Assembly (NCBI GenBank): GCA_964106645.2
Contig: OZ067038.1
From: Podarcis pityusensis
Taxonomy: Eukaryota
Direction: 5' to 3' (one strand)
DNA length: 64,000 nucleotides
Under the pieces are notes generated by a model. That model did no database searches and was not told the origin of the DNA. It was given only the letters and a program-made list of their open reading frames with translations. The first letter of the stretch is position 1; each line of letters starts with the position of its first letter. Below, piece after piece: positions 329-63,766 of the stretch. A program made the position numbers and the translations under genes.

Positions 329-3300
329 GTAAGCTCCCTCTTTGTTCTGTTTTTAATCTGTTGGGAGCTGTCCAGAGTGGCTGGGGAAACCCAGATGGAT
401 GGGTGGGGTATAAAATAATGATAATGATAATGATAATGATAATGATAATGATTGATAATGATAATAATAATAATGTGATTATGGTTATTTTTAAAAATCA
501 CTGACCACAGTAACATGTGTCCCCACTTCACACTTCTCAGAATTGACTATGTACATGCAAACAAGATGCCTGCTTGTTAAGTTTCAAAATGTTTGCAGTT
601 TTAGAGTGTATATAGTCTGGATGAAGTATCTAAACAAAGTTTGATAAAGTAGCATGAAAGGGGAAGTAAGGGAGAGGTGATAGCTGTGTCTAGAATACAT
701 TAGGAAATATGACAAAATCTGTGAGTGCTATTCAAACCTGCTTCACTCAGAGTTGACCCACTGAAAGCAATAGATCTCACACAATCATGTTCATTAATTT
801 CATTGGCTTTACTCTGAGTAACTCCTAGTTGAATATCACCCCATATGTTGCAAAAGAAGAATTTATGGCAAACTTCCCATAGACATGAAATTGACTAGGT
901 TGGAATTTTTCACTATGCCAAGTGATTTGTATGGGACGTGTGGAAGCTCCCCCAAGGAGGAAAAGGAATGAAAATACATTTGCTTAATGGGGAGGCTCAC
1001 CTTCATTTATATCCACACACTTAATAACCTACTGATGTAGGATAATGGTTAGTTCTAAAATAGTGGAAGGGAAGAATTTTGTTCTTCTGTTCCAAAAAAA
1101 TAATAACTTTGTATAGCCAGGGACAAAGAGACAAAGTAAAAGACAAGAATCCTGAAGAGTAAATGGAGCCAGAGAGTGGAACATGTCATGTGTGAAAGCC
1201 CCAGATATAAGAGGGAAACTTATAAGGTCTTCTAGCAGGAGGAATTCTATGGTTCGCTAGCTCCATTAATAGCATTTCTATTAAAATTCTCCAGTGCTGG
1301 CATCACAAACTGGGCAAATGTAGAAGCAGGCATTAGGGCAAAATTGGTAATGAAAATATTAATAAAATGAACCTAGAACAGGACATGAGATGGAAAATTG
1401 CCTTTGAAATTTAATTGGCTTTTGAATTGCCATTTTCAAAGTCTGTCTGCAGCTCTCTTGCCAGCTGGTTAATGAAGGATTACAGGATGAATATAATGAA
1501 TATTATTATTTCTGGCTTATCTGACAATGTCAAAAGCTATTTACCTGGTATTTAAGCATTGGCTTACAGTATTTTTCAGGATCCTAAATTAATGGGAGCT
1601 GATCCTTCTCAACAACACAGAATATGAGCCTAGAGCTTATTAAATTTAACTCTTATTACACTGAGTCTAAATCTTCTTATTCCTTATGAAACTGGGTCAC
1701 TTGAAAGTATTACTGGTGATTTTGGGGATATGGTTTGTTACAAAATAGTTTGTAATTGATTGCTATTTGTCACACATTATTTATGTGGTATGTAGAAATA
1801 TGATTCAGAAGTTTTCCAGTGATATTAGATCACTTGTAAATGTCAATGTGTATGCTTAAATTGTTAATTTATTTTATAAACTAAATATTGGGGGGGGGGG
1901 GAGATGATTTGTGCAAACTATTACCGATACTGGGCTGGATCAACAGGTTCCTTCTGTGAATGAAAGGGGTGCTTCTGTGAACATAAGACTCCGTCCATGA
2001 GTGGAAGGGAATCTTTGGATCCTGTTACTTCTGCCATTTAATACTGCGCTGTGCATTTTATAGAAGATGGAATGTTTTCTTGCTTAGAGGATGGGAATCA
2101 TTACATGCTGCAGAAAGAGCAGGTATATGTATCTATGGTGTTCCTGTAACATGTGAGAATGGTACCCATCTATTTTTGAGGTGTCATTCCCCTTGGATTA
2201 GGAGCCTTTTCTCTGGAAGGGAAACTTTGGATGCAGCCCATCCCATGCAAAAAACTGCAACAAGTAGTAATAGCTCTGAGTCCAAACAAAGTCTATGGTT
2301 TGGCTCCCATATGTTAGGGGAAATTGCAGGTCTACATGGTACCCACTAATTGGAGGAGGGTACCCACTAACATCTGTAATGTATGATGTACCTATAAGTA
2401 GGACGATTTATAAATGCTTACCAGCAGCCAACACTCTATCACATGTTGGCAACAAAAACATTTTTCTCAGTTAAGAGATGTGTGATTTTCAGTCCACAAA
2501 TGAGATGCAAACAATTGTTTTCTGAGAAAACCCTTGTAGTCCATTATCTGAAACATGTGTTGCTATTATCTACTTTCATGTGTCCATCTAATTACCCCTT
2601 AACATGTATATGACTTGCAAATAAAGGATTATGTATTCTGTCTTAATTAGATTCATTCACATGCTTTAATGGAGGTGAGTGCGTGCACTGGCAACTGTGT
2701 GACTGTAGTCGATATAATGCAACTGGATCAAGATGTCAGAAAAGTGAGTAGAAAGTAGTTTGCATGTTACATATTGTGTCTAGCATGACATAAGACCCAC
2801 ACTTATAGCTTTACTGGCAAACTTCTTTTCAGAAGAAGGCTCAATTGTATTCTTGGATACAGTAATTGAACAACTACATGTGTTGTTTATTGATTTTAAT
2901 TGATAATTTGTGTCCCACCTTTCATCCAAATGATGCTCAAGGCAGTTAATCACAATGATACAAATGCAATAAGATACAGTGGATGCTTGGGTGGCGAATG
3001 TGATCTGTGCGGGAAGCATGTTCGCAACCTGCAGCGCCGTGTCTGCGCACGCGCGGGTCGCGATTTGGCGCTTCTGCGCATTCACAAAGCACAATTTAGT
3101 GCTTCTGCACATGCGTAAGCGCCAAAACCCGGAAGTAACCCATTCCGGTACTTCTGGGTTCGGTGCAGTGCGCAACCCAAAATCGCGCAACCCAAAGCGT
3201 CTGTAACCCGAGGTATGACTGTATTATAAAATAACCCTGCTTATGTATATTATTATGTGTGTTAACACACCTGTTTATTATCAATAATTGTTTTATGCAC

Positions 3301-6300: not shown

Positions 6301-9300
6301 TGCACACACACAAACACACAAACATTTTAAAACAGCACATACATAAAATCAATTCTGACCCAATATTGATGCCAACTGGGTATTCAAGAGGTCTGTTGAA
6401 AGAGGAACATCTTTAGCAGGCACTGAAAAGACCACAGATACGGTGCCTGTTTGATAGCAAAGGTAAAGATGAAGGTAAAGGTAAAAGACCCTGGACGGAT
6501 AAGGTGACTATGGGGTGACTGTGGGGTGCGGCACTCATCTTCATGTGGTCAGCGTGACTAAACCGCTTCCAGCGCTACCCTGATGGAAGCCAGAGTGCAT
6601 GGAAATGCTGTTTACCTTCCTGCCACAGCAGTGCCTATTTATCTACTTGCACTGGTGTGCTTTTGAACTGCTAGGTTGGCAGAAGCTGGGACAGAGCAAT
6701 GGGAGCTCACCCCATTGTGGGGATTTGAACCGCCAACCTTCTGATAGGCAAGCCCAAGAGGCTCAGTGGTTTAGACCACAGTGCCACCCGCGTTCCTGCC
6801 TGTTTGATATATAATGGGTATAAAGGATGACAATGAGTTTGTTTGTTTATCATGGTATTTGTTTGGCTTTCCAGGATACAATTACCATATACCATAGGGA
6901 ACTTGTATATCCAAGCATTAGCTGGATATGTCATTGTTAGACACCAGTATGCATTCTCTCTGGCTTGGGATGGTACCTCTGCTGTTTATATTAAGATGGC
7001 TCCTGACTACTTGGGCAGAACTCATGGACTGTGTGGTAACAACAATGCCATTCTGCAAGATGAACTTGCCACTAGTTATGGTGAGTATTTCATCTAATTT
7101 ATTAAGATGTTATTTGTGTTCCTCAGCAGTTACAGGCCTTACTTAGAAAGAGCAAGACTGCTATAGCCCTCTTTTTGTCTCGTTTGGCTTCCCTAAATGC
7201 CATAATTGCTATGACTTCATCCATTGGCTAAAAACACTGAAAGGAGAGAGCAGGTTAGTTCTCACAAGACAAATGGGCAAAATAGTGACTGCACATTTTG
7301 CTTCATATCTCAGATTCTGCATGGCTTGCTTTTTAAAATGAAAGCTGGGAATCTGGCACATTATGGCCAGTGGGATGGTGGTGGCACTGCCTATTAAATA
7401 GCTTCTGTCCATGAGCAGAAAAGGACCAGAATTTCTTCTTGTGTTGTTTTAAAATGGTTTATTTGTGATTTCTACATATACTTTGCTCTTCAATATTGAT
7501 GGGCTTCATGTGCATTTTGTGTGCCAATGTCTTTATACCATTTTTCCCCGAGGACAAAATGTAATATAAGAAGTGGCCTTGGATGAGCTGTTGATTAGAA
7601 TTTAGCATTAACAGGAGCAGTCACACTTCTATCTAACTATCTATCTGACAGAGATGCTTTGTATTTCTTTCATAGCTTCCATCTAAACCCAATCAATAAA
7701 AATGTTAATTTCCTGCATTTGTGCACTTTCCCCTAGGAAAACTTACTGAAGACATTGAAGAGTTTGTAGAAAGCTGGAGAGAAAATCCTCCACAGGAGAA
7801 CATCTTCTCCTGGGATACCTCATTTAACTATGAGCCACCCTGTATGACTCAAAGTCAAACATTTTTGCAGGTAGGCACGATAATTAATGTAAGGCAGGCA
7901 CACTGGCTTGTTCCCGCGATTGAGGGGGCTGGTGCTCCACAACATGCTCACACTCTGTGCACATGCTGTGCAATGTGCTGATGTGTCACATGCACATTAT
8001 GTGGCATACATGAGTGATGTGAGTGTGGCATGAGCACATGGCATGAGCACATCACTGCAAAATATTGATGAGGCCCAACCCCCTCCTTGAAAATTGTGGG
8101 GGCCCTCAGCCCCTTCTAGGTGACACCCCTGATGTAAGACATAAACTTGTATGAGACTGAATTCTGAAACTTCTTATTTTAAAAAATGACATAAATGACA
8201 TCCTAATTGCAAAAAGAAACCGCTGCCCATCGTTATGGGATTGAGACCCTTAGTTAAATAGCTGTGATGCATTGCTTACATAATAAACATAGTTTCTGGA
8301 TGGTTCACATGGCTCTATACTGACTGAAATTGACATGACAGCAATTGAGCTAGCTGGGGTATAAATGATTTTAGATTCTATCTGCCTCCTTCTTTCAAGT
8401 TCATTTCTGATTTTACTCTCTACCTTAAAATATGTGGAAAATGTTATTTCCTAGAGGAGTGCTTAAGGTTCATAGATTAAGTAGATTTCTTATCATGCTT
8501 GAGTTATTTTTAATTCCTCCTTTTATTTCATTCTTTGAAATTATTATTCAGAGCTTCCTATTTGAGCATTCAAAGGCTGTAGCCAGCCAGTGGATTCCTG
8601 TGTTATTTAGTGCCAGAATTTAATCAGATAATTCTTCCTCACTTGTATTAAAATCTGTGAAAGAGCTTTTGTCTCCATAGACAGCTGTCCATAATGACAA
8701 AGAAAAAGTTCATCATAATTTTGGCTACCATATTTCAGTTTCATCAGAAAACTTATCCCATACCAAGTCTGCTTTAGATTTCCTGCGTAGGGATGAGGAA
8801 AAAAAATACCAGCATTTTGCTACTGGCCCTGGAGGGGGAAAAACAATTTATTAGTGTTTATTCAAATATGTCAACGTACATACAGTATAGTGCATGTATT
8901 ATGTAAATGTAATATGAGTATGTTTAATTACAAATTATACATCTGTGTTGAATCTGATAGACCTCATTTGAAACCTAAAATATAAACAATTCACATGCTA
9001 GATAAAATATGAATTCACAATGCTGCCTCTTCAACTAAAACCTGTAGATGGAATGGTACTCCATTCATGGATCATGGCATTCCTGCCTTCCCTATATAAC
9101 ACCCTGTGCCTCCCTGGAAATCCACCACTTATGGACTCTTAAGAGCCTACCAGGCATCCCCAAACTCGGCCCTCCAGATGTTTTGGGACTACACCTCCCA
9201 TCATTTCTAGCTAACCAGACCAGTGGTCAATGATGATGGGAATTATAGTCCCAAAGCATCTGGAGGGCCGAGTTTGGGGTGCCTGGTAGGCTCTCTGGCA

Positions 9301-12300
9301 CAGAGTGAGCTGTGACATAGGAACCTGCAGCATGACATGGAAATAATAAAAAACCCAATCCCCCTTGTGCAAGCCTCCTACTCAGCAACATCTTTGCAGC
9401 CTTGCCAATCTTTCTAGGACCATTGCTCTCAGACTTTGGATTCAAAATCAAAGGCTGGATACTTATCAGATAATCTAGTTTCTAGACTATTTTTGTTTTT
9501 TTTAAAGCATTTTTTAAAAAAGCTTCTTCCTTCACACTAATTCTTTGTGTGTTTTCAGAGGACGTATGCATTCTGCAGCATTCTGCTCTGGAGCCCCTTC
9601 AAAGAGTGCCATGAATTTGTGAGCCCATTTCCTTTCATGGCCAGCTGCACAAATGATCTATGCATGTAAGTGTCTTGGTTTGAGAAGTCCTGAATTAGCA
9701 GTCAGTGGTTGGGATTCAGAGAGGTCCACTTAAAACACTTCTTGGTATGGATGGGACTGTGCTGATTTTCAGCTTCTAGTTACAGCACTTCATACTGATG
9801 AATGCCATTCCAAGCAGTATCTTTAGGAGTAGCTTTTTCATGTGCATAAGGTACCATGGTAGCTGTGGGAATGGGGTTCTTTGGATTCTGACTGTTAAGT
9901 TTCTGCAAATATTAAATACATCTCTTTTTGGGGGCCTGCTTCTCTTCTCACTGTTTTTGACTGTCCTTTGTGGTACCACTTCTAGTTATAATAGAATGAG
10001 TAGCAGTAGAGTTAAAGCGAAATATTTATTGATTTAAACATTATATGCGTTTTGAATGTTCATCATTGGTATAATTTAGAGTAAATTAGCAGTAATTTAG
10101 TAGTAAACCATGGCTTAGAGTTATGGAAACAATGCCTCAGCATGACTTGTACTCAAATGCAATCACTGCCTCTACTCTTTGTTTAGCTGCAAGGAAGGGA
10201 TTGGCAGCTTCCACTTCTGTTTTAGCTTAGCAGCAGTTTTATGTGTTGTCCCAGTCCTAAACTGTGGTTAATTAGAACAGTGAAAATAAGGCTGTGTCAA
10301 TTTTATTTTATTTTTGTGTTAAGGTCAGAAGCTGATAATGCAACTTTGTGTCGAGCATTAACTGAGTATGCAAGGACTTGTGCTCAAGCAGGAAAACCTC
10401 TCCACAACTGGCGGGCACAATTTAAGGAATGTGGTATGCAATGACAAGGTTTTAGAATGCTGTCTTCTGGCAAAATATTATGCATATCGTTTATTCCCCT
10501 TTCTGCCAATTTTCTCATTTTTAAATATAGGTTCATCTGGCCTTGCTATGGACTTCGTTGGTTGCCTGTTTTGTAATGGGAGCCTGTTAGCAATTTTTCC
10601 ATCTGGCAAATTGGCAGGGCCATTTGGTTTTCAGCTACTACCGTAGCAATCGTCACAACTTTGTAAAGTTTGGCCGTTAGGCGTTGGATCAGCAATCATG
10701 GGGAGGGGAGGTGGGGCCATCACCTGCCCCTCCAAGTTCAAGGGTATTCCGTTAAAGAAATCTAGGGATTGGCCTGGGTCTTGTCCGAAACCCCTGCGGA
10801 GGGGGCTAGGGCCATACCAGGACCCCACAGGGACACTGGGGGTGAGCGCCAGTCAGGACCCTCTGGCGGTGCTCCCTCTGGTGGTGTTCATCCTCTATGG
10901 GATTCCCCGTGATGATGCCAATGCCTAATTCAATACCACTCACATTCTGTATTCAATAAAATTGTGGCCTAAATTTTGCCCAATTACTTAAACTAAAATC
11001 CTGTGTCACTGTTTCATTTTTTGGGGGTGCTGGGGGGGGTATTGAATCGCAACTGAGTATGCAAGGACTTGTGCCCAAGCAGGAAAACCTCTCCACAACT
11101 GGCGGGCACAATTTAAGGAATGTGGTATGCAATGACAAGGTTTTAGAATGCTATCTTCTAGCAAAATATTCTGCATATCGTTTATTCCCCTTTCTGCAGG
11201 TTTTCTCGTTTTTAAATATTGTACCTTAATTGGTTATTGTATGCAAGTTCAGACTTTAAGACAAACCAGTATATGCTTTTGCATGGAGACCACTTCACTA
11301 GATGCTTAAATTCAAATTAAAGTAGCATCAATTTTCCAACCCAGGAAGGAGAAGCATAAATCATTTAACATTTCTTCATTTCTTCTGTTTTCCAGTCATT
11401 AAATGTGAGGAGCATCTTGTCTACAATGAATGCATTGACTGCTGCCCAGTTTCATGTCAGCAAAAAACTCACTGTGTTGACAGTGAACTGCCCTGTGTTG
11501 ATGGATGCTATTGTCCAGATGGTAATGCAGTTTTTGGTGTGGAATTTTGTTAGAAGTTGTGGCCTTTCAGAAGCTTATGGCCTTTCTGCAATCTACAAGA
11601 CACAGTAATTAAGTCACACTCCAGATATTTGTCAACAAAACCAGATGGGTTCATTCTAGAGGCAATGGGTGGTATTCAACTAACATCTCCTGTCAATACA
11701 AGGATTTCCTCTTGTGCAATAGAACTTTCCTTTCATCTCTTGTTCCCATGCACATTCTCTGCCTTTTCTAAGTCTGCTACAGAGAGTTGGAGGAGCCCCC
11801 AGAGCAGATTCTATGAACGAGCTGGACTATAAGGGTTCAGGCGATCCTTGAGGTATCCTGGACCCAAGTTGTTCAGGGCTTTGTAAATCAATGCAAGAAT
11901 TTTGAACCTGGCTCAGTAGCAGATGGTCAGACAGTGCAGCTGTTTTAACAATGGTGTCACATGTTCTTGACCAGAAGCTCCCCTCAGCAATCTGGCTGCA
12001 GCATTCTACACCAGCTGGAGTTTCCAAACCAGACCCAAGTGCAGCCCCACATAGAGCTCATTATAGTAATCCAGCCTTGCTCCAAAACTCCTAATGACAG
12101 CACCCAATGACTGCGTATAGATATCAGATAGCCCTGGGGACAGACTTATTGGGAGTAAGCCTTACAAAACTTGGTATGACATTTTAGAAAACAGGCTTAG
12201 GCTGAGAGGCTAAGTGATAGCATACCCTATATTGACTTGATAGTATGTTAAGAAATCAAATGGATTTCTGTGAAAATATTTTTGGTATTGGGCTGCAACT

Positions 12301-15300
12301 ATTTATAACTCAAGTTGTTGTTTTTTTTATGACAAAAGCAGCTTTTAACCGTTTCATAATACATCTTAACCTTCTGTTTTGCTTTTGTTTTTTATTATAC
12401 CATTAAACTTTGCAGTATAAGATGCAATGAGGAAACATACACAAGGATTTTAATTATAATTTATCACATCTTCATTTTCTAGCTAGAAGTACTAGGCAGT
12501 TTTTTAATGATCCTTTTCAAAGCATATGGCTCTAATTTTGTTCTTATTGTCAAATGTTCATTTTAGGACTTATTTATGAAAACAAATTATGTGTAAGGCC
12601 ATCAGAATGCCCTTGTGATTATCACGGATCTGTCTACAGAACTGGTGCTGTGGTTCATGAAGAATGCAACAACTGGTTAGTAACATTCCATATATTTGTT
12701 CCTTTTAATATAGCACGAATTCCCTAAACAATGTCCAATATATAAGCCTTAGCATATGTGCCAGTCCTTACTTTTGTAAAGCATACACCTTCATAGAAAG
12801 GTGCGTTCTCTTTCCTTTTGCCATTTGTAATTTTGTGGAATAATCTTAATTTTAATGGTTTTGCGTACTAAATATGGTGACCAGTTCTTTTGCATGCCTT
12901 TGGTGCATGAAGGTTTCAAGCTCCCAGACTCTTCTCCTTATCATACAATCTGTGCTTGAGTTTTTAAATAAGTGCTGACAGGATGGTGAGGAAGATGCTG
13001 TACTTGCAGTCAGCTGGTTGTGATGGGCTTGCTGAACCTCACAACGTAGGGAGGATGTTTGCATCATTTCTTTGAGAGATTTACTTAGCTTTTTAGTTTG
13101 TGGCTGAGCATTCTGTGACATAGCCTATTCAAAACTTTAACCTAAACACACTTTATGGGTCTGCAATTATGCAACCTTTAAGACCTGTGTCAAACCTTCA
13201 TTAACATCGAAATGCCCATTCATTTTCCTTAGTGTTCCCCAGGTGTATCTTGCATTCTGAGACTTGTGGCATAATTTCAATCAGAGTGCTGTGCTCTGCC
13301 CCTACTTCTGCCTTTTCATGGTTTCATGACTTGGTATCAATTAAAGCATTCACTATAAGGTTTCCTTTGCAGTCCTACAACTGTTACTTCCAGTTGCCAC
13401 ATAAGGGCTATGCCAACAGCCTTAAAACATCAAATAATTCTTTCTGTTTTCAGTACATGTGCTGGAGGAAAATGGATTTGCACAAATCTTACCTGTCCAG
13501 GTATGTCTGTTCTCAGATATTTTATTCAAATATTTTTCACTGGGTATATTGCATGTGATCCAAGTGTTAATATTGATGTCTGATTATTTTTCCAATCTTT
13601 CCTAGTTATTTACACCTGGAAAGCAGCATATAAATGCTTAAAAGGATTATCAGCTCCCAGAATGCAAACTGTAATCACTAATTCCTTCAGGCTTTTTTTC
13701 CACTATTGCGACTTTAATATCATATATTACTAGCAGCACAGAATATTTTGGTAACATATTGAAACACTTTTAACCCCCCCCCTTTTTTTAGCTGAATGTT
13801 CAGTCTCAGGAGATATTCACTTCATGACATTTGATGGGCGCAAGTATACTTTTCAAGCCACTTGCCAGTATATTCTGGCAAAAAGCCTCACCTCCGGAAA
13901 ATTTGCTGTGACTCTGCAAAATGCTCGTTGTGGACAGGTAAGACTGTAAGAGCAAATGTTTGGGCTGCATCAAGTGTGGGTACTTAACTGGCATTATCAA
14001 AAAGATTAAACTAAATTTATAAGTTTATAAGTTCCCCTTCGGTGAATGGAAGGAACTTTTCATTCACTGAAAGATTCCTCCCATTCATGGAAGGTTACCT
14101 TTGGATCCAGTTCTAATTTCCTTGGGGAAGGACCATAGCTCAGTGGATGTAGAAGGTCCTAGGTTAGGTCCCTTCAGTTTATGTGTATCTGTGTCGTGAG
14201 AAATTACTGTGCAGACATTTCTCTTAAAAAACTAACTGTCTCTGAATATGCAGTGGCAAAAGGTGGATAGCAAATAGCACATGTGCTTTCTTATGACTTT
14301 ATTTTAATAATAATAATGTAATTAATTTAATTAATTAATTAATTTATACCCGGCCCACCTGACTGGGTTTCCCCAGCCACTCTGGGCAGCTAATGGTGCC
14401 TGTGGTATTGTAACAGGAGGTTATGTAAAGAAATAGTCAACAGTACAGTGTTGAAACCTTTTGCCAAGGGAGGTGTAGAATTATTTCATCTGATATATAT
14501 TTGTAAAAAAGAAATATTTGCTCTTTTTATCTCATTTTATAGGTACTGAAAATATTGACTTTTTATCTAGTTCCTCTAAGGTTTATAGTTTTCTACTTAA
14601 GTCATGGATAGCTGCTGTAGTGCTCTCCACATGTTGGTGGACTACAATTCCCATCAGTCACAGCTAGCATGGTCAAGGATGATGAGAGTTGTATTCCACC
14701 TGGAGGGCACTGTATTAGCTACTCTTGACTTCAGTAAAATGTTTAAATAATATAGTAATATAATAATATGCTTTCTACGTTCAGCTCATCTTGCAGATGG
14801 CAAGTCCAACAAAGGATACACTGTTCATTGTTAAGATCTAGAGTGCCTTAGAAAGGCAGTTTTAGAATGGCATATAATCTCCCAAGCGCCTGCACAGAGT
14901 CCATAGCTGTACACATACCACTTTAATAATCTGTTAGTGTCTCTGTGAGGATATACAATAAAGCACCTTTTCTTCCAACAAAGCCACTTTGCAAGCATTT
15001 TCTTTTCTAAGTTGTTGATCAAATACAGTCTAACGAAAACTTGAAGCGACAAAATCTCAAGGCACAAGGCATTGACTCATAAGGATTGATTCAGTTAAAC
15101 TGTGTTTTTAACAACCACAATGCATTGATTTGTGAATAATCTAATAAACTGTAATATCGAATGCTTGGTTTCTAGTTGTCATCTTTGAAAACGGTTGCTT
15201 AAAATGTCTTATGTAGAAACACCAAATTATGAGATAAGGAAATGTTGCATTTTTTTATTAGACATTAGCATAAATTACTCTATTTCACTGTCTTGATTTT

Positions 15301-18300
15301 TTTTTCTGAGCCTTGGATTTCTGTAGAGTTACTGAGAAATTTTCATTAAAATGCTAGAGCTCTATCGCAATAAAGCAGATTACTATACTGAAAAAGAAAA
15401 AACCTCCAGCAACAGCCAGATAACACCTGAACAGGTTTTCAACTCATTGAATCACAAAGAGTACAGTTACTTAGAGCCTCAGGTTTGGTGACAAAAGCAA
15501 TCATCATGCAGCAAGTGAGTTTGGAATGATGTAAAATTTAGCTTTAAACACTTTTTGAAAGAGGATCAGTCAAGTGATCAGCATAGCTTAGCCTTATCTG
15601 AGTCTCAAATGACAGTATCACTAGGTTTTGTGGTTAGTTATGGTAAGAAGGATATTTTAATATAGGAATTTCTATTAAATGTCTGGTGATGAGTGAGGTA
15701 CAGTTCATGAGAAGGCAGCTGCTGATAGTTAGCGGAGTCAATGTTATGAAAGAAACAATTCATTGGATCAGAGAATTATTGCCAGGATTTTAGAGCCTAT
15801 TTTAGACAATATGCATATGCATACACAGATATATGTAGCCAATATATACTCCCACATTCATCTACTGCTCTTAACATTTAAGGGCTTGATTGGACATCTT
15901 GAAAATGTCTCTGTGAGGATATACAATATATAAGGATTTGATTACAATATATAAGGATTTGATTGGACATCTTGAAAATTATATACAATATATATATAAA
16001 ATTATATACAATATATAAGGATTTGATTGGACATCTTGAAAATGGCATAGGAAGCTGCCGTATGTGGCCAGACAATTGGTCCACCTAGTTCCAGTACTGT
16101 CTGACTTACCTGACTGACTGTACAGGGTCTCAGGCAGAAGTCTTTCTCTCACTTGCTACCTGGCCATTTTTTAACAGTAGCTGCCAAGAATTAACCATGG
16201 GATCTTCTGTGTACAGTCATACCTCGGGTTGCAATTGCTGCGGGTTGCGTGTTTTCGGGTTGTGGACGCGCCAAACCCGGAAGTACTGGAACGGGTTACT
16301 TCTGGGTTTCGGCGCTCATGCATGCACACTAAATTGCACTTTGTGGATGCGCAGAAGCGCCGAATCGCATCATGCGCGTGCGCAGACGCGGCGCTGCAGG
16401 CTGCAAACACTGCGGGTTCACGGATCACATTTGCAACCCAAGGTTCCACTGTACAAGATATGTGCTTTACCTTTCAGATATGGGCATTTCTACCTTATCT
16501 AGGGTATATATCTCAGCTCATGTCTATCCGAGTCTTGAAACTTGCTTTGCCACTATAGAAGTTGGAAGCAGTATGCTTCTGAATACTAGTTACTGGAAAC
16601 CACAGGAGGGGAGAGTGTTCTGGTGCTCATGAGCTGCCTGCTGGTCTCCCATGGGATCTGGTTGGCCACTGTGAGAACAGGATGCTCTGCTAGATGGCCA
16701 TTGGCCTGATCCAGCAGGCTCTTCTTATCTTCTTAAATTATAAATATCATCTTACTGGGTGTTCTCATTTTCATAGCACTGCATTTTGTGGTATGTAAAA
16801 TCTCCAAGCAAATTATTAACTGATTTTTGTGTACCAGTGACTTTCCCAGGAGATACTTTCCTGCTCTACACCTGTCAAATTCTACCAAAAGGCAAATAGG
16901 TCTTAATCCCAAGCTTATTTTGCAATGCTGCTCTTCAATTTATTTGTAGAATCAAGATGGAGCATGTATCCAGTCAGTCAGTCTTATTCTCAATCAAGAT
17001 TCCAAGAGGCAAGTGACTCTGACCCATTCAGGAGATGTTTTGGTATATGATCAGTACAAAGTAAATCTGCCTTATATTGATGGTAAGTAAAATAAATAAC
17101 ACTTAGCCACAGTTGAAATGCTATGATTTAAATTATGTCTACATATCATGCCCTAATTCCATCATGTCAATCATTCTGGTTTTCTTCTCCTATAGCTTCA
17201 CTTAGCCCTCTGTTTCCTTCCTCTAATATCTACATCATCTCATGGTACCCCTGGAACCAGATGTTAGTTGTATATTCACTCCAGATGCTGCTGAACTAAA
17301 ACTCCTATCATCCATGGCCACTGGCCATGCTTGCTGGGCCTGATGGGGTTACAGTCCATCCACATCTGGAAGGCCAAAGGTTTCCCACACTTGATATAGA
17401 TAGATGAACTAAGTGATACACATAAAGGAAGCCTTTTTACTGATGGACAAGCTATCTTCAGCCTCAATCAGCTTGAGCAACAAATTATTTTTAGGAGGCT
17501 TCAATGAACAACAAATCATCCAAAGCAATTATTTTAGCTTGATTCTTTCCAGATCTTATCTTGCTGTCAGTTCCATCATTGAGAGTTTAACAGTCAACCC
17601 TTCATCAGCACCCCCACTGCTGCTACCCACAAGGACACATTGTGGTGTTGAAAAGTGCTCATAGTATCTAGACTTCCTTGAGAACCTCGTGTCACCACTT
17701 GTCACCTGGGTAGGTTTGCAAAAGGTGGTGGTGATGAGGGCTCAGGGCATTCGTAAAATAGAGTACATTCTGATCTCCGCAAAACAATTTTATTTGAGTT
17801 AAATTCAAGTAGCGATTAGGAGGTTAATTTGCAACTAACATTAAACACATTGTGAAGAATAAAAGCAACTACTGATCTCTTGATAATATTGTAGATGACT
17901 ATTAATACATTTTTTCTGCAATGTTTATCTACTAGACGCATTTGAAATACGGAAACTGTCCTCTGTATTTTTGCAAATAAAGTCATATATTGGATTACAA
18001 ATACTGTATGACTGGAAGGGCTTGAGGCTCTATCTCAAAGCTGATGCTCAATGGAAAGATGATACCATAGGACTTTGTGGGACTTTCAACGGAAATATGC
18101 AAGATGATTTTTTGTATGTATCATTAATATTTTTAAAAAATACTTCTATCTTCATGAATATTGATTCCCCCCAAACAGTATAGAAAAACATAGTAGCTCT
18201 TTATTAGAATAAAATATAAAATTTGATTAGCAAACCTAGTATTAATTAAATAATAATAACATTGAAGAAATTCAACCCAGAAGAGAGATCTTGTAATAAT

Positions 18301-38000: not shown

Positions 38001-41000
38001 TTTATCAAGTATCATGTTTAATACTGTACCGTCTAATACTGCTGCATCATGATTCCATATCTTAGAATTACTAGTTACAACTATTTGTACCACTGTTTGT
38101 TACTACTACTACTACACCTTGGAATAAAAATGTAAGAAAATAAACAAAATAAAATAAAATAGTTGCATTTTCCACCTCACAGCAGAAAATGTTCAGATGT
38201 AATGTGCAATTGCCAGATATGCTCTGTGTTTTCCCCCCTGAAGGGCCTCAAGAGGGAGCTAATTTGCAAGTTTTGATAATTGTTAGTCTCTCCCTAGCTG
38301 TTGTTACTATATTCAGATTCATTATTGGTGTAAGAAATCAACAAGGCATCACTTGACACTTTCAGCTTGTACATTTTCTTATATAGCTAAAAGCGTATGA
38401 CTCTCTTGTGCAGAACGAAACTGTCCATGTTTGGCATATTTATGTATTTTAGATATATTTTTATAGAGTCCAAAACAATCTTTACAGCCTAAGGTAATGG
38501 GGGCAGGATCTAAAAAAGTCAGGTTGAAATTGTTTTAGTTTTCCATTCCTTTAATACTTCTTTTGAGTTTTCCTCAGATAATGATATTGTTCTAAACATA
38601 TGAATGTGTGCAGTAAAACTACAGTGAGGGTCTAAGGTCTTCTTTTGTTGTGTACCAGACAGGATGGGTGCTAAGTACCAGCTCCACTTCCCTCTGAAGG
38701 GGATAGGAAATGTTTAGCAAGTGGTAAACTATCATCCACTTGTCTTCATCTTTCCCTCCAGATTAGTGGCAAGGCATAATTAAGAAATCTTAGGTAGTAT
38801 TTTAGTTGCTGTGAATTTTGATTCAATATTGCTTGAATATACTAGGTTGGATCCAAAGACTTCCTTCCGTCAATGGAAAAAGTCCTTCCTTCAGGTTTCC
38901 CATTGGAGGAAGACACTTTCCATTAGAGAAAGGGACATTCAGATCCAATTCATTATTTTGCACATATTAGTGATTTTCAATTACATCCTGCCTTGTGATA
39001 GTCTGGCAGCACATGTTTATTGATAAGCTGCATGCTTTTTACAGAATTCACTATACATTTTGATTTATAGTACTTACTGAGCAATCCAAATGCCCTTAAC
39101 AGCAGCCTGCAGTAGCTTGGAATGAGTGGAGGTGTCCCTCTGCTCAGCTTTCCCTGCTAAGTCACTGTTGGCCCCCCTTCTCCTCACTGAACATGCAGGC
39201 AGGTGGGAAGGCCATTGGTTGCTGCTCCCACCATCAGGAGTCTGTGGAACACCCCCTCTGCCCGAATCTGGGCATGGGGCTGAATCTGGGGTGGGGCTGA
39301 GTTGATCTGGTCTCTGATGGATCCCAAACCAGTATCACTGCCATTATGTTGACAGCACTGGGCCTGATCACGGTGCTAGCCTGGGTCTGCAATAGTACAT
39401 CAGATTTGTTCCCTGTTTTTTCATGAAACATCTTTGGGGCACCTGTGCAAATCCTGTCTGCATAAAATATAGGTGCTCTGAAATAATGGACTAAAGTTAC
39501 TTAGGTCCATTGATTTCAATGGGTCCACTAAGAATATGACTTAATATTGGATATCACCCTCTGCATTTTAATTTGATAAAGGTCTGCATGCTGGACTTAA
39601 GTTAGCTATTGTGATATGTATCTGGGGTGCTGTGAATTTTTTTCAGTTAGCGGGATGGGTGGGACAAATTAGCCCCAGATGATTCATGCTGTCTGAAGCA
39701 AATTATCCATGCCCCATCCTTTCAACTCTTCATCATAAAGATCCTAGGGGCTCAAATAAAATGTCCTTTAGGGTACATAAATCTCCAGAGCAAGTCCCTT
39801 CTCCTTTAGGTCTCAGGCTCAGGAGAAACAACAGAATGTTACTTCCAAAATCCAAAGGTAGCTCTAAGATATGCACAAGCCCAACCCTTGGCCCCTACTA
39901 GCTTTGGGAGATAAATAACAATCTTTCCACAAGCCCAAGCTTTTCTTAAAACCTTTGGTGACCCTCCCTGCCTGCAGGGTCCGACTCTTGCTCTCAAATT
40001 GGTTCCATTTTTTGGTACCCAATGCATTTACACGCTAGCAGCCCACTTTAATGTTGTTTGTGTTTGGGATGGAAATGATTGTTTTCAGGGGTTCCCCCCC
40101 CCACCTATATGAGCACTGGGCTTTAACATAGGGAAGGACTCTAACGCGGATACTTTCCTCCTGACGGAGGGAGAAAAGGTTAAAACCATTTTTGAAGCTG
40201 AGCTTGCAAACATTGCACATCTCTAACAGCTTTTACGTGACTCGTAGTTCTGATGTCATTTGATGGTGCTGTTTTCTTTGCCACTGTACAAGCTGACCAA
40301 TAAACATGTGTGATACAAGCATTTGCGGCATTCAACAGGAAATGTAACCTTGCCTTCTCTTGACAGTTCTGGGAAAGGGCCCCTACAAGCTGGTCAGCTT
40401 CTTGGACAGAGAAATTGCAATTGGAGCCAAGCTGCTGGATGGTTCTGTTTTTCCAGCAAGAGGAGATGCTATTGCTCCTGGAGATGCAGTACACTTTATG
40501 CTGACATCGGGACTGTATAAGCCAAAAGCACATGGTAAACCCACTGTCGCTGTAAAATATCTAGAAAATTAGCAAAGCCAATGCTCATTTCAGATGCATC
40601 TCTCTTTCAAGTACCAGACACAAACAATGGGGAAATGGTATTATTTTCATATCCTTTTTCAATGTTTCCCCCCGCAGCAAGCCAGTCCTTCCTTAGTAGG
40701 CAGCATGGGTTCTGGCTGCATCAGAATGTAGGAAGTTTTGTAGAAGGAGCATTAAACCTCACTCTACATCTATCAGTAGGTTCTCAACAAGAAGGCTGTC
40801 TGCCAAAATCTCTATCTAATGAGTGGATCTTTACAAGGTGATTGCTGATTTATAAATAGTCTGACACTTCAGCTTTTCAGATCAACAAATTTGTAGACCC
40901 AGCAGTCCTTATGTTCCCTGTGGCAGGAACAGAGGTAGAAAAGCATGGGAGGAAGTCTGGAAACAGGCAGCCAGCTGTAGAATTAGTTACAGATAGGTAG

Positions 41001-43137
41001 CCGTGTTGGTCTGCCATAGTCAAAAGAAAAAAAATCCTTCCAGTAGCACCTTTAAGACCAACTAAGTTAGTTCTTGGTTAGTTCTTACCAAGAACTAACT
41101 TAGTTGGTCTTAAAGGTGCTACTGGAAGGATTTTTTTTTATATTAGCTGTAGAATTAGTGAGGTACAAATGGTTAGGTCAGCTGAGTTCACATTATGGTT
41201 GGTTGGCAGGTGGTGGGACTGTAGTTAAGTGGGAAACCACAAGTGTAAAGAGGTTTTTAGGATTACTTCCAACACCACCTTTCATTATTTGAGTTTTTAA
41301 AACATGCGTGAGTGAGCAATCAGATAACAGAAAAAAGTGAGTGATGTGTGAATGATGTGAGAGATGATTTTGGAGTGTCTTGATAGTTGCTTAGCCAGAT
41401 ATCTACTCCACTTTAGAGTTGAATGTGTGGTTATTTGTACTTTACAAAGATATTTTCTTCAACCATTTTTTTTAAAATAATAATTTTTGCTTCCTTATTT
41501 AGAAACGAGAAAGCAAACAAGCCAATGTGGTCTGTGGAGTAACTGGTACTTAAAAAAAAAATCAAAGTCTAAAACTGTTATTGAAATAAGTAATAGAAGA
41601 TAGTAGTGTAATAAAGGAAAGATTAAGGAAGCATATTGTTAAAAATTGTGTAAATGGCATCCAATTTGGATAAAACATAAGACAATGAAAGCCATTTGTT
41701 TATTTGCCCATTATTATTGATCTGACAAAGTATTGAATCTTCTGAAGCAAAACTCTTATTTGAGTTCCTGCTGGGGTGAAAGTTCAAAGTGCCAAACTGA
41801 AGTGACCCACTGTCCAAAGTTGTGAAGTAGATTGCAAAACATCCCCTTTCCTTCAGTGGACATCTGTATTGCTGGATTTTATCGGGAAATCATCTTCATG
41901 AAATTAGCATATGGATGTTCACATATGCAGACTTTATTTATATGTTATGGCTTTATGTGGCTGTCCCACAATATCTTCATGTGGGCCAGTTATGCTAGGT
42001 GGTCAGAGAAGGGCAGGTAACACTCTCACTCCCTTCCATGTGCATTGTCTGAGGTGACTCTTTGAGTTCACCAATGCTTATTGAAACTTAATGAAATTGT
42101 TACAAGAATTGGCTATTGGTAGTTTACACTGGTATTGCCAGTTTTCTCTCTACTGTGTGTATGGAAGAAAATGTCAGTTCCTTTGGTGCAGTTATGATTC
42201 ACACAGTAAATGTTGTCATCTTGGAAAATTAGACAGTATTCCCGAGTAATGAACTGTGCATCACACAACATCTGTTTAACAGAGATTATTTGTTCTCTCT
42301 GCAGGATTTTTAAAGAAACATTATCCAGCCCTGAGGGGGGACAGTTGATTTTACAGTAGTTTTATGGTTATTTTAAGCAAAATAACACAATGTACAGCGA
42401 AATAATATTTGGAACAACAGATGCTCATCTGAGTCTCAGTTCTATCACCCTTTTAGTGAGCGTTACTTTACCCTACAATTAAATCTGCTCTCAGCGTCTC
42501 TGTATTTAGAAGACCCTTTGAAAATTCCAGAGTAAAAATATGGCTAACACATAGAATTGCCTGTTACGGACATGTTTTCTGGGTTAAGGTGGCCAATTAA
42601 TGAGGGAAAAACTGAAAAACAAGAACCTACAGTACAAATGTTGCTTTATTGATATTTTTGTGAATAAGGGTTTGGTGGGAGGTATTTCCTGGCCATTGGG
42701 GAGAGCGAGTTTAATGAAAAATATAACTTGTTAAACACCATTTGTCTTATGGAATTAGAATGTTCTCTGAAAAATGTAGTGTTTCGAAATTCCTCAGTCT
42801 ATAGTTTCAGAAGCTCCTCTGTTTACAACAATAGCCCTATTCAGTCATGTACTTAACAGGAGTGTGCAGCGGCCACAAGATCTGCCTTGTATCCATAGCA
42901 TTTAGAAGCAGCCTGATCCATTTTGGATCTGATCTTTGTCATTCTGATTTGACTCATTATTCTGGTCCAAATCTGATCTCTTAAACCAGAGGTGTTTTTT
43001 TCTCTCCTTTGACTATAATGGGAGATCTAAAAATGGATATAGCTTTTTCCTTTTCACATAAATGGATGAATCTGAAGGCAAAGAAGCCACTCCAGTTTTC
43101 AGGCTGAGTCATCCTGGGGTTTTCATGCAGAAAACCT

Positions 43138-43173
<36 letters not shown>

Positions 43174-46100
43174 TGTCTGTTTTTTTTATTTTTTATGATA
43201 TTTTTTAGATGCAAACTGAATATATAGCAACCTCCTCCTGAGAGGATGAAGCCCACCAGTTTTCAGAAAGATAGTTGCACCAGTTCTCCCACAAAGGCAG
43301 ACTCTGTTATATTGGACTGGGAAAGTAGAAATCACATTCCTCCCCTAGCACTTAAAAAAAAAAATTTGGGGTGGGCATATGTAATCAGTTTAGAAATTGG
43401 TGACATGAGGAAGGTGTCCCTGGGTAAGAAACCTGCCAAAGTTCAGAAAGTTAAGTGCAAGAGCTATCATGATCCACCTATACCCCCCTTGTTAATGGTG
43501 CTATCCAGCTCAGCAGCATGAAAGACAGCCCTAAATCAAGCCAATCTGTTTTGTTATTCACAGTACAGACAGATCTGACACATCCCCATCCCAGTATTTA
43601 GCCTTATCCCCAAAGTCACATGATTCCTACCACTTTTGCTGTTATCACATGGGCAAATAACTCCCGAAGAATGTATCTGTTCTGTGTGTAAAGACTCCCT
43701 GCACAATTTATTATTCTGAGGTGCAAGGAAACTTGACGAGGTGAAAAGGCTGCCTGCTTCATAAGAAATGCCTCAACACAGTGATTGTAGCATTGGGAAG
43801 AACTCTGTGATTTTGAACATCAAACTAAACAGGCACCCCCACAGTCCCTTCTACTAGGCTTGCTCAATGCCTAAAGATAGTTTGAGATAGTATAGTCGCT
43901 TTGGGCTAAGCTGAGCCTAGCAGAACCTGCCTGTGCTTTAAAAAAGTGTAGAAACAGTCACAACAGAGTGTAGTGTGCTGGAGGCAATCTCAAAAAAACT
44001 CTGCTCAGCTCAGGTAATTATTTTTTGTTATTGCTGTTTGTTTTCCAGATCCAAACCTGGCTTCATTTGAATCAGCTGACAGACCAAATTATTTTCTTCA
44101 TTTAGCTTCCAACAATACCTTGGTTCTCGCCAAGTGGGAAAGAAGTGAACATTTTCAAAACAGATCAACGTTTACCATCCACAAAAACACATGGCTTTCA
44201 GGATATAGCTCCTTTGAGTCATTTGCAGTGCCAGGAGCCTTCATCCACATTTCTGCTGCTTCTGTGAATATTGTTAAATATCGCCACTCTGAGGCATTCA
44301 GACTTGCTACACTTTTCAAACTTGTTGGTAAGTACTTGAATATGAATTGTGGTGGCTACATTTTCAAACTTGATTTTGGCATCCTTTGTATGATATCATC
44401 TTTTACCATGCGATGCCTGACAGGAGTTCTCATAAATGACCAATCAATTTAAAACAGCATCCTGTGAGTGTGATATTTCTGTAGTTTAAACTTGTTCCTT
44501 TAGTTTTACCGGGTTCAGAATATAACTTCATCCAGCTAGCAATATAATGTTCAATTTTATTACAAATCAAGCGCCATTCCCTTCCTCTTTTCTTCTCTAG
44601 CTTGAAATGTAAAATGAGATCATGTGCACGCAGACCAGAAGTTCACAACCAGCTGTTTTGTAGGCACATGCACTGAAATTCTTTAGTGTTAACCCATTAC
44701 TCTCACTGAAACTCTTATTTGTTGGTCTGAACTACATAATCAGGTCAGATAAGCTGCTTTTTGTTTACTGACTATATATTCTCTATTTGGGTTAGTTCTC
44801 TTAATTACCTCTTGAGTATGTGGTTGTTTTGTCATCTGCCCCAACCTTAAACTCACTGTTTTTCCTGAGCGTGCTTCTTTTGGAAGAATTCTTTTGGCAG
44901 TTTAATTTCCAATTGTTAACTCTGCACCATGAAACCCTTGTAATGGTAAATGTCCAAAATATATACTTTTAATTGGAATAGATTGGTGTTATGGCAACAT
45001 GATGTCTTTGAGAATCAAAATAATTTTAATTTAGATATGAAAGCTACCCATTCAAACACTGAGCCTGTCCACAGATATGTTTAGATGATGGTTGACTTTG
45101 TAGGCTAATGTACACTCTGATCATCCCTTAGAGAATGCACCTTGCAGACCTTATCACTGTATTGCTTGTGACATTTAATGCTGCTGTTATTCATGGGCCT
45201 TGAATTCGCAAACATTCTGAGGAATTACTCTTTGGGGGAGTCTATGGTCATTGGGAGACGTAATACTTAGGAATCATTAAGAGTTTTTTTGTTAGGGAGT
45301 CTCCACTGGTCTATTTTGGAATCTCATTGTGGTCCCTCTGGCATTACTAGTTCAGTCACTTAACCCATTCCTAAAGCATCATCCCTAAAGATCAATATTT
45401 GGTAGAGTTTGTCACCATCATCAAGCGCTCCCCCTATGTAGATTAACTGGCAAAGTAATCTTACCCCCACTCCCTCAATGGCATATCTGTGTTTGTGCAC
45501 TGGATTAAGTGGAGGTATTCTGCCCAGTTCTGGTTCAGCCAGCTTCCTCCTTGCTGCCAATCTGGAGGTGGAATTGGGTGCCATCAATATATTGATGACC
45601 CCCTGCTGCCTACTCCAAAACATTTGGATGGCCTCTTCCAGAGACTTCATGTAGATGTTAAATAGCACTGAGGACAAGATGGAATCTTGTGGCACCCTAC
45701 AAGCAAGTGGCCAAAGAGCTGACCAATTGTCCCATCTGCATCTCATTCTAAAACTTACCTTCGGTGTGGCAACAGAACCAGGAAATGACAATGCTGCCTT
45801 GTCCCAACTGTGATAGGCAATCTGGAAGATTAATGTGGTTGATTGTATCAAGGGCCACTGAAAGATGTCACATTGCTAGACTAGGACTCTTATCCAGGCA
45901 TTATCAGTCCCAAATCTGGGTAGCAAATCTGCCTGAAAGTGGTTCAAAGAATCTATAACATCCAAGACCACTAGGAGTTGGGTTGCCAGCATCAATTTAG
46001 TTACATTGCCCCAAAAAGGTAGATTAGTCAGTAATTGTCCAAGCAAGAGGGATCCAACAAGGACTTTTAGAATAGGGAGTGGTCTTACAACTGATAATTT

Positions 46101-52100: not shown

Positions 52101-55100
52101 CAGGGTTCAGGATCTCGATCATGGGCCTAATAACACCCCCTTCCTACTTCTTCCTAACCATTGCAAGTCCCCTGCTAGTTTAGTTCCATTCTGCTTTTGT
52201 AGTCCATCAGCCGCAGCTAGCTTTCTAAGGGATCTAGGGGGGAAATGCATGTCAATCCCCATAATATACCATACTTAAAATCTTCTATTCCTTGAAGAAG
52301 CTCAGGATAGCATACAAAGAGTTATCCCATTTCCCCAATAAACAATCCTGTCAAGTAGGATAGGCCTAGTAACTTCATGGCTGAGCAGGGATGGAACTGG
52401 GTCCAAGTCCAACATGCTATCCACTATATGACTTCCATTAGTTTTCTTCTGACTGGAGTAGACATATATGGAAATATGTGTTACTCCGGAAAAGGAACTA
52501 CCTGGGAATAAGAACATATATTCTGAAGGTTACCTTACTTGGTATACGCGAAAAGTTGTTGTTTTCATCCAAAGCCTTCACAAAATAAATAGGCAGTCAT
52601 AGAAATCATTACATTTACATTTTTGTGGTGTCAAATTAGGTTTTGAAACATTAAAATTGAACCAAGTTTTTCCCATTTTAAAACATAATTTCCTGACCAA
52701 GAAGACATGTTAAAGTTGGAAATTGTTTCTTTAATACTGTTCTTCACATTTATTCCTTTTGGTGCATATTTATGAGCCTATATTATTACAGGTCTGGAAA
52801 GTAGCACCCATGTTTGTTTTATTTCAGGCATTGAACCTACAGCTGATCTTCGAATTCTATCATCCACTGTAAAGACACATACAACGTCTGGGGCTCATCA
52901 AACTTCTGCAATAATGCTGAGTAAAGAACTAACTTTATCTCCTAGGCCAATATCAAAGGACAGAGAAACAACACAGGCATTCAAGTGGCAATTTACTCCA
53001 ACTAAATTTTCTTCTCTTTTGTTGCCAAATATTACAGTTTTAGCCATATCTGCAACATCAAATGCTTCAACATATTCAGCTTTTGGTACCAGCTCAATGC
53101 CAGTAGTTTCACACCCAGTATCTGATATTAGCCTCCCTTTTGCTGTTCCTCCACCTACAACTGTGGCAGTTACGGAGTCTTTGCCTGGTAAACAGACAAT
53201 TAGTACAACAGTCCCTTCTATATCTATAGCAACTGAATCAAAAATTAAATTAATTTCTACTTCACCTATTATTGTGCTGCCATCAATGCTTACAGTTGCT
53301 AAATCACCAGCCATAACTAAAATAGCACTAGATAAAAAAGTAACAGGTGCTCAACTCCCCCCAACAGAGGAAACAGAAAGAGAACTTGAAGGTATTACAG
53401 AAGGCAAGATTTCTTCAACACCAAAGACGGAAAGAACAAGTCAATTTTTTACCAAAGCCCCATTGCCATCTTTGGAAATGTCTTCCTATGCCCCCACAGT
53501 GAATCAAACAACAGACAGAACAATGCTGGGTGTAAGTCAACTGACTGTAACAGATGCAAATATCACTGTAGCTCCGTTTTCTACTTTATCTACTGTTTTA
53601 TCAACAGTAAGGCCTGTTGGAAAGCCAATTCCTTCAGAAACAACAAAAACAACAGTTGCTTTAATCAAAGAAGGAGTTAAAACCACATTTATTACAGTAC
53701 CTCCAGCACTAACGCAACCCACCACCACAGTCCCGACACATACAAGTGGTTTTCCAGTTTCTACTGTTAAAAAGGAAATAGCACAAACAACATCAAGCAT
53801 TATGCACCCCCCAAGTACTTTTTCTCATTTATATTCAGCTACGACTCTAAGACGTAGTACTTCTGGCAAACTAACTGGAGTGCCTGGTACAACTTCGCCA
53901 ACTTTAATAGACTCAAAAGAATTTTTAGAGACAGGATTGACAAGTGCATATTCACCATTTATTCAACCAAATGTGACAGAAGCAATGACTGTTCTGTATA
54001 CCCAGTATCCCACTTCATCACACGCTATGACAGTTACACCCCTCTCTACCAAAATAAGTTCTAAAATGACGGTTCTGCCAGAATCAGTCGCCGATAAAAC
54101 ATCAACAGAATACAGAACACCTTCGTCCCTGGAAACTACAAAAGTGAGTGTTGTACCTTATTCTGTTGGTGTGACAAAAGTGGAAACAGCAAAATCTGAT
54201 TTGACAAAGGAAGCCGCAGCTATGGGTGTCCTAGTTCCATTGGTAACTAAAAAAATTGAACCAGTTCAAACAACTGAATTTCTGTATCCTATGACTGATA
54301 CAGAAAGAGTGAAATTGTACCCTGGAACAGCAGAGTCAGAAAAGGCCACTGCAGAGTCAGAAAAAACCACTACAAAAAAACCTTCCATTATTTTGCTTCC
54401 AGTGTCCATTTCTACAGCAAAGAGTCCGATGGCATCATCACCTGAAGTGCGAGTTACCAGTGCTGATACTCACCTTCCAATAACAGCAAAGACTACATCA
54501 TTTTTTTCAGAGTTTCCTCTTACTACAAAGCTGCTAAGCACAGTTGCTCCAGAATTGACAATAACAGAAGCTTTAGGTGCCACTGATGCTACTATACTGC
54601 CATACTCTGAACTGAGCAGCCAACCATCAACCTTTAAAGAAGTAGCATCAACCAAAGTAGTATCAACCCTCTCTTCCTCTATTGCTCTTCCTCTAACAAC
54701 ACTTCCAACCACACTTTACCTGGCAGAAAAAACAGTTCTCCCATTAACACATAAAATACCTGAAACAGCAGCCACTGCAGGGCAGCTAATTGAGATAACA
54801 CAACCATCCATAACTTCCAAGGCTACTTCATCTGTTCCTACTTCTCCAGTGGAAAGGTTTTCTTCCCGTATGAAAGAAGAATCCACTGTTCCACATTTTA
54901 TCCCCCAAACGACAGGAAAACTTGATTATTCACCACCTTCTAAAGATTACTTAACAACCAAGGGAAGTACTGCAGCCTATCATTTTCCAGTTGAACTGCT
55001 GAGAACAAGTATCCACCCCCAAATTGTTTTTAGTACAACAGAGTCAGCAACCAAATTTGCAGTGCCCTCCACATTCCAAAGTACTCCACTACCAGGGATT

Positions 55101-63662: not shown

Positions 63663-63766
63663 TGCCAGTCAATCTAGACTCTAACCAGTACTGAACCCAG
63701 TACCCCCAGTACCCAGCACTGCCAGTCAATCTAGACTCTAACCAGTACTGAACCCAGTACCCCCAG
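63663..63766. repeat. 47-bp exact direct duplication within an old SINE
   Basis: 63663-63709 = 63720-63766, 10-nt spacer. Confidence 0.92.

Follow-up and report, generated by a model that had tools for sequence, protein, structure and literature searches.

In HeLa cells, up to 10% of L1 inserts are accompanied by target-site duplications (TSDs) of more than 100 bp, as are most of those in NER-deficient cells, and some of these inserts are tailless (PMC5223499). The flanking duplications of Dualen-4b_cRei have a median length of 900 bp (PMC9977147), and the same source cites a 126-bp TSD for the rotifer element R9 (Gladyshev and Arkhipova 2009). Aberrant HIV proviruses are reported with one normal end and another that is often truncated, with flanking host DNA duplicated over hundreds to thousands of base pairs (PMC5041404). 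Ngaro AB repeats have been found in isolation (PMC8547959), DIRS elements are present in snake genomes (PMC3157835), and insertion by tyrosine-recombinase (YR) elements is expected to leave only a short shared motif at both ends, a trinucleotide in the case of DIRS (PMC7192593). Here we describe a 522-bp insertion bracketed by 169-bp direct repeats in the otogelin gene (OTOG) of Podarcis pityusensis, located in a window of 64,000 nucleotides (contig OZ067038.1 of assembly GCA_964106645.2) to which all positions refer. A sequence-only reading of this DNA had suggested an unusual mechanism; this was overstated, since long flanking duplications have been published for several elements (PMC9977147, PMC5223499, PMC5041404). 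The otogelin insertion adds a natural case to a kind of event, the long insertion-associated duplication, that is already documented.

The earlier identification of the host gene as OTOG is confirmed by a C8 match, by near-identity to the Lacerta agilis protein and by the exon series. The coding exon at 10324..10433 (+ strand, 110 nt) encodes the C-terminal half of a C8 domain (Pfam, E 2e-8), is the functional copy and ends at the donor GT 10434; spliced to 9559-9665 and to the next exon (11396..11521, +), which is in frame and itself matches L. agilis otogelin, it gives an open frame in which 113 of 114 residues are those of the L. agilis protein. Residues 56-2694 of L. agilis otogelin are all accounted for by exons of the window, and the orthologous exon series (VWD/C8/TIL, AbfB and the mucin-like region) is present; the sole stop within an exon alignment falls beyond a donor. 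Another exon of the gene returned 18 matches, of which the 16 with names were all otogelin or otogelin-like, and the 3.2-kb exon gave 13 matches, all of them otogelin, the best being that of L. agilis at 92%, which places the window in a lacertid and bears out the earlier view of the host. This long exon of about 3.2 kb (52776-56120, +) is Thr/Ser/Pro-rich and mucin-like, has a strong strand skew, and shows 91-92% identity to L. agilis versus 44-65% to other squamates. Judged from its exons, the otogelin gene is intact. The segment of the 110-nt exon is present once in all 12 of the named squamate otogelins compared, and its skipping shifts the frame, so that either exon skipping or a plain insertion into the exon would probably produce a null allele; the view that this exon is needed was thus well founded.

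The direct repeats lie at 10360..10528 and 11051..11219 (both +) and are ungapped, with mismatches at 8 of 169 positions (BLASTN within the window, E 5e-75); the segment that they enclose occupies 10529..11050. Copy 1 consists of the last 74 nt of the exon and the first 95 nt of the intron, and it was found to start 36 nt into the exon, at catT^AActg, and to run through the donor into the intron, exactly as had been read. Copy 2 contains an orphan 74-nt exon half and a second donor at 11125. On both sides the breakpoints of the duplication coincide exactly with the ends of the insert, and the right boundary of the latter is ambiguous by 1-3 nt, because the initial bases of copy 2 could equally be the last bases of the element. 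As the duplication begins in the exon and finishes in the following intron, the upstream copy is whole, and the geometry bears out the proposal that it retained a complete exon and donor and that the insert became intronic. The intron measures 962 nt with the insert and the second copy, against 271 nt predicted for the empty state. This "rescue" is what any duplication starting in an exon and ending in the next intron provides, plus survivorship.

The 522-bp segment is non-coding and foreign in composition to the intron, in agreement with the initial description: its GC content is 50.6% versus 36.6% in the flanking intron, and its CpG observed/expected value is 12/33 (0.36) versus 0.20 window-wide. 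It carries neither a tail nor terminal repeats, and BLASTN detected no second copy of it within the 64-kb window. Runs of A or T reach at most 7 nt, and both strands lack a poly(A) and a tandem tail; terminal periodicity is 0.48 (a G run) and 0.33, versus 0.75 and 0.54 (period 6) for the SINEs of the window. Of the Pol III boxes, the insert lacks the B box and has a single loose match resembling an A box; ARAGORN found no tRNA in it, and none of the 12 frames scanned held a Pfam coding remnant. Its 93-aa frame has no relative among 1.84 billion proteins (phmmer), and its 73-aa minus-strand frame gave 0 matches in a word search of protein collections. It was matched to no credible Rfam family, and no Rfam hammerhead was detected at E<=5 in 10200-11400, a scan that can miss divergent ribozymes. 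BLASTN against plasmid sequences gave no match, and motif scans for contaminating copies in bacterial genomes gave 0 and 3 loci, all 3 of them motif-only. The insert motif was found in no paper among published full texts and had 0 matches in 4 supplementary files of PMC3266345. The RNA folding score of the insert (z = -2.7) is not diagnostic.

The ends of the insert were compared with those of known element classes. No terminal inverted repeats (TIR) are present at its ends, the only inverted pair being an internal one of 10 bp, and it was rejected as a TIR DNA transposon or MITE for want of TIR. TG is absent from its left end, and it has neither TG...CA termini nor a terminal inverted match; the right end reads CA only when one shared base is assigned to the element, and TATAA and TATATA occur on neither strand. 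It fails as a clean solo LTR, having no TG start and no TSD of 4-6 bp (the duplication is 169 bp), and as a clean YR insertion, the junction contexts having no common trinucleotide and a long duplication being present. The insert does contain a single AATAAA (10955..10960, +, sense to OTOG), followed by a G/T-rich tract and situated 95 nt from the right end. An AATAAA near the right end with no tail suggests that the segment is organised like the terminal repeat of a retroelement and not like a copy of polyadenylated RNA, and from the continuation of the sequence past a poly(A) signal with no A-tail we infer a donor at the DNA level and not a polyadenylated RNA. The insert may be akin to the 3' terminal repeat (B repeat) found in Ngaro/DIRS-order elements of squamates, with the R/U5 end of an LTR as the alternative.

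Other repeats are found in the window. Two SINEs at 6457-6796 (-) and 60745-61116 (+), presumably Sauria SINE/Squam1, have period-6 tails and exact 13-bp TSDs. A 157-bp insertion at 40988-41144, with a 15-bp TSD and no Rfam match at gathering score, may be a Penelope-type terminal fragment, and a decayed ORF at 45360-45875 (-), with no Pfam match at E<=0.1, may represent a LINE reverse-transcriptase segment. A palindromic MITE-like element at 9142-9294 has 47-nt arms with 91% complementarity and diverged relatives at 17279-17375, 58341-58442 and 59014-59168, and an interspersed repeat of about 250 bp is present in inverted copies, 80% identical, at 2975-3223 and 16212-16453. The statement that TSDs elsewhere in the window measure 13-15 bp holds for three insertions (13, 13 and 15 bp), which were picked out on the basis of their inner ends among 34 pairs of exact repeats, most of these pairs being at chance level. 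At 169 bp, the duplication flanking the otogelin insert is far above these values.

It had been proposed that the insert is a non-LTR element placed by target-primed reverse transcription (TPRT), the first nick being exonic and the second lying 169 bp downstream. Neither part of this proposal is sustained. Both strands of the insert are free of A-tails and tandem tails, no B box, tRNA or Pfam remnant is present, and the order of the nicks is unreadable in a product that an intronic insertion with copying of the upstream 169 bp would yield identically; "aimed at the exon" is an assumption, as the product is symmetric with respect to the order of the junctions. A specific form of TPRT with a distant second nick, in which a tailless 3' fragment of a non-LTR or Penelope-type element was primed at the exonic TT^AA and left a 169-bp TSD, strikes us as unlikely. 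The target site at 10360 does supply a TT^AA core and 1-3 nt of possible primer overlap, non-LTR activity is evident in the window, and long TSDs are known for L1 (PMC5223499) and for Dualen-4b and R9 (PMC9977147). However, this core is the only part of the L1 endonuclease consensus (TTTT/AA) that is matched, the insert extends 95 nt beyond its AATAAA, and the absence of a tail and a B box is joined by that of any Rfam ribozyme match or coding remnant.

We favour instead a single event: a fragment of a retroelement terminal repeat would have been joined at the exon by one end, and its other end attached by repair 169 bp downstream. Our confidence in this reading falls somewhat short of even. 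In one germline event, a non-coding fragment of a retroelement terminal repeat would have been inserted and 169 bp of its target duplicated. The right end of the element would have joined the target at 10360 within the exon, with a possible overlap of 1-3 nt, and host repair would have attached the other end, probably truncated, 169 bp downstream of this first join, the stretch between the two joins being copied by fill-in. With the full exon and donor kept in the upstream copy, the allele would have been functional and would have persisted, while copy 2 would have drifted afterwards. One event is favoured because the breakpoints of the duplication coincide with the insert ends on both sides; the single event, the asymmetric joining and the order of the junctions are inferred. 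The terminal-repeat-like anatomy of the insert (the AATAAA and G/T-rich tract; no tail, TIR or coding remnant) also argues for this model, as do the like product documented for retroviral DNA (PMC5041404), the isolated Ngaro AB repeats (PMC8547959), the DIRS elements of snakes (PMC3157835) and the intact state of the gene. Several observations run against it: no tool matched the insert to an element, so that its natural right end and truncated left end are putative; the CA of the right end is weak, needing the shared base, the left end has no TG and there is no TATA-like word; the TT^AA core resembles an L1 endonuclease site; and L1 is known to yield tailless inserts flanked by long TSDs (PMC5223499).

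A further point against the one-ended insertion is that an element-free duplication with filler occurs in the same genome. At 63663-63709 and 63720-63766 lie two identical 47-bp copies in tandem, separated by a 10-nt filler resembling adjacent sequence; the structure looks like an element-free product of repair. A 23-bp segment at 14938-14960 has an exact copy about 970 bp downstream, in a rearranged patch of short repeats (15879-16044, period about 64 bp) that is possibly a scar of template switching. Such element-free duplications with filler, and the fact that the insert lacks every insertion hallmark tested, would suit a tandem duplication made by repair, without the help of a transposition enzyme, whose junction took up 522 bp of filler copied from another repeat by microhomology-mediated template switching. 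We judge this rather improbable: the other fillers are short and local, whereas this one is 522 bp long and has no source in 64 kb, and random capture would be unlikely if the right end is, as we presume, the natural end of its family.

The same final structure could also have been reached in two steps, the element having landed first at the intronic position 10528 or the exonic position 10360 and the 169 bp having been duplicated later by unequal exchange or template switching, with the sister chromatid or the homologue as exchange partner at one end of the element. The product is identical, and the element need not have been aimed at the exon. Duplications and rearrangements by alternative transposition are known for Ac (PMC3744419), as are rearrangements at the target sites of Cryptons (PMC9977147), and two source haplotypes would be compatible with the uneven distribution of mismatches between the copies, one in the exon part and seven in the intron part. 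This scheme nevertheless demands two rare events within 169 bp, and neither junction retains a TIR or a short TSD; we consider it unlikely. In copy 1 the mismatches are at 10384, 10462, 10469, 10480, 10507-10509 (a single 3-nt block) and 10517, and the split between 1/74 exon bases and 7/95 intron bases is not significant (Fisher p=0.08; p=0.23 with the 3-nt block counted once). Mismatch clustering is at the level of chance (p=0.17), and gene conversion was rejected on the same figure. The exonic difference (10384/11075, T/C) is synonymous in an Ala codon. Positions 10516-10517 read CA in copy 1 and the corresponding 11207-11208 read CG in copy 2. This suggests that a CpG has decayed in copy 1 and that neither copy has stayed as it was at the time of the event.

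Between the two copies, the intron parts have diverged by 0.055-0.078 substitutions per site. If neutral change proceeds at 1-3e-9 per site per year, the event would be roughly 10-40 million years old, and related lacertids should therefore share the insertion; the crown of the Lacertini has been dated to 37.6 Ma (PMC6733905). A divergence of 5-8% in the intron also makes the event an old one and an artefact of assembly unlikely. Such an artefact, in which haplotypes or contig ends were joined and the same 169 bp shown twice, appears to us very improbable. The divergence would be unremarkable if the genome were very heterozygous or hybrid (2-3%; p=0.13-0.40), but at a heterozygosity of <=1% at least 6 events in 169 bp has p<0.008. 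Moreover, the window contains no N, and both distinct junctions would need to derive from real reads, implying two separate insertion alleles.

The side effects of the insertion on splicing were estimated with a PWM whose training set, 28 donors and 27 acceptors, was chosen automatically within the window and includes some wrong ones, so that the scores are rough. The duplicated donor at 11125 scores the same as the real donor (7.7). The left junction creates an acceptor-like site (10512..10533, +; AG 10529-10530) with a score of 7.4 versus a training median of 8.6, and an internal donor-like site in the insert at 10842 scores 6.9. Copy 2 alone has a further acceptor-like site (11180..11202, +; AG 11198-11199), whose score of 9.2 compares with 9.7 for the real acceptor at 11396; in copy 1 it is absent because of the 3-nt block difference at 10507-10509, which may reflect a loss there or a gain in copy 2. 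All seven of the pseudo-exons tried, including those starting from the left-junction acceptor, run into an early stop, as does splicing to the acceptor-like site at about 11200. On these model scores, the rescue of OTOG splicing may be incomplete. Copy 2 was rejected as a conserved alternative exon: upstream of it no acceptor scores >0 between 10766 and 11147 (PWM), and although its exon half encodes the same 24-residue peptide, zero non-synonymous changes have a probability of p=0.12-0.22 under neutrality, with which the unchanged peptide is compatible.

A bolder extension of the one-ended insertion would make the element a member of a lacertid YR family (Ngaro/DIRS-order) in which one end is routinely joined by repair, leaving duplications of >100 bp, and would make the 3-nt change a compensatory splice mutation. 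This is a long shot. It draws on one copy and on a resemblance that we presume, and such elements are expected to make no long duplications, so that the idea seems to us highly doubtful. Were it true, exon halves and splice donors would be copied genome-wide, and the acceptor-removing change in copy 1 would have been selected after the event.

The otogelin case offers a clear example from nature of an insertion accompanied by a long duplication that was fixed across the boundary of a coding exon, and it illustrates how geometry and selection leave a gene intact. The insertion is usable as a presence/absence marker in lacertid phylogeny. Events of this kind will escape TSD finders whose range ends at about 20-30 bp, and annotation may wrongly take up the orphan half-exon of copy 2. 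The importance of the case rises only if long duplications prove to be a regular product of the family, and most of all if that family is one of tyrosine-recombinase elements. Our search, which extended to little of the subscription literature, found no published description of the event at the otogelin locus or of lacertid Ngaro elements.

Each of the described systems shares part of this picture. The large-TSD inserts of L1 have in common with it a TSD of >100 bp, which arises there from a distant second nick (PMC5223499), but the otogelin insert has no L1 sequence evidence and no poly(A), and its site matches only the TT^AA core. Dualen-4b_cRei and R9 display long TSDs at the level of the family, as had been hypothesised for the family of the insert; those are non-LTR elements with many cases, whereas otogelin is one case with no non-LTR hallmark. 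Solo repeats of Ngaro and DIRS are non-coding terminal-repeat fragments, a few hundred bp long and scattered in genomes (PMC9210276, PMC8547959, PMC7192593). The insert may be akin to them, yet the otogelin junctions have no common trinucleotide and a 169-bp duplication is foreign to the normal reaction of these elements. Reversed-ends (alternative) transposition of Ac resembles our locus in producing a tandem direct duplication bordered by the element (PMC3744419); as described there, Ac requires TIR elements and leaves an 8-bp TSD, both absent at the otogelin insert. With respect to one-ended integration of HIV-1 and ASLV, the otogelin event differs in being germline and old, in involving only a 522-bp non-coding piece and in that a role of integrase is putative at most, while the likeness would lie in the combination of a normal end, an often truncated end and a long host duplication around the insert (PMC5041404).
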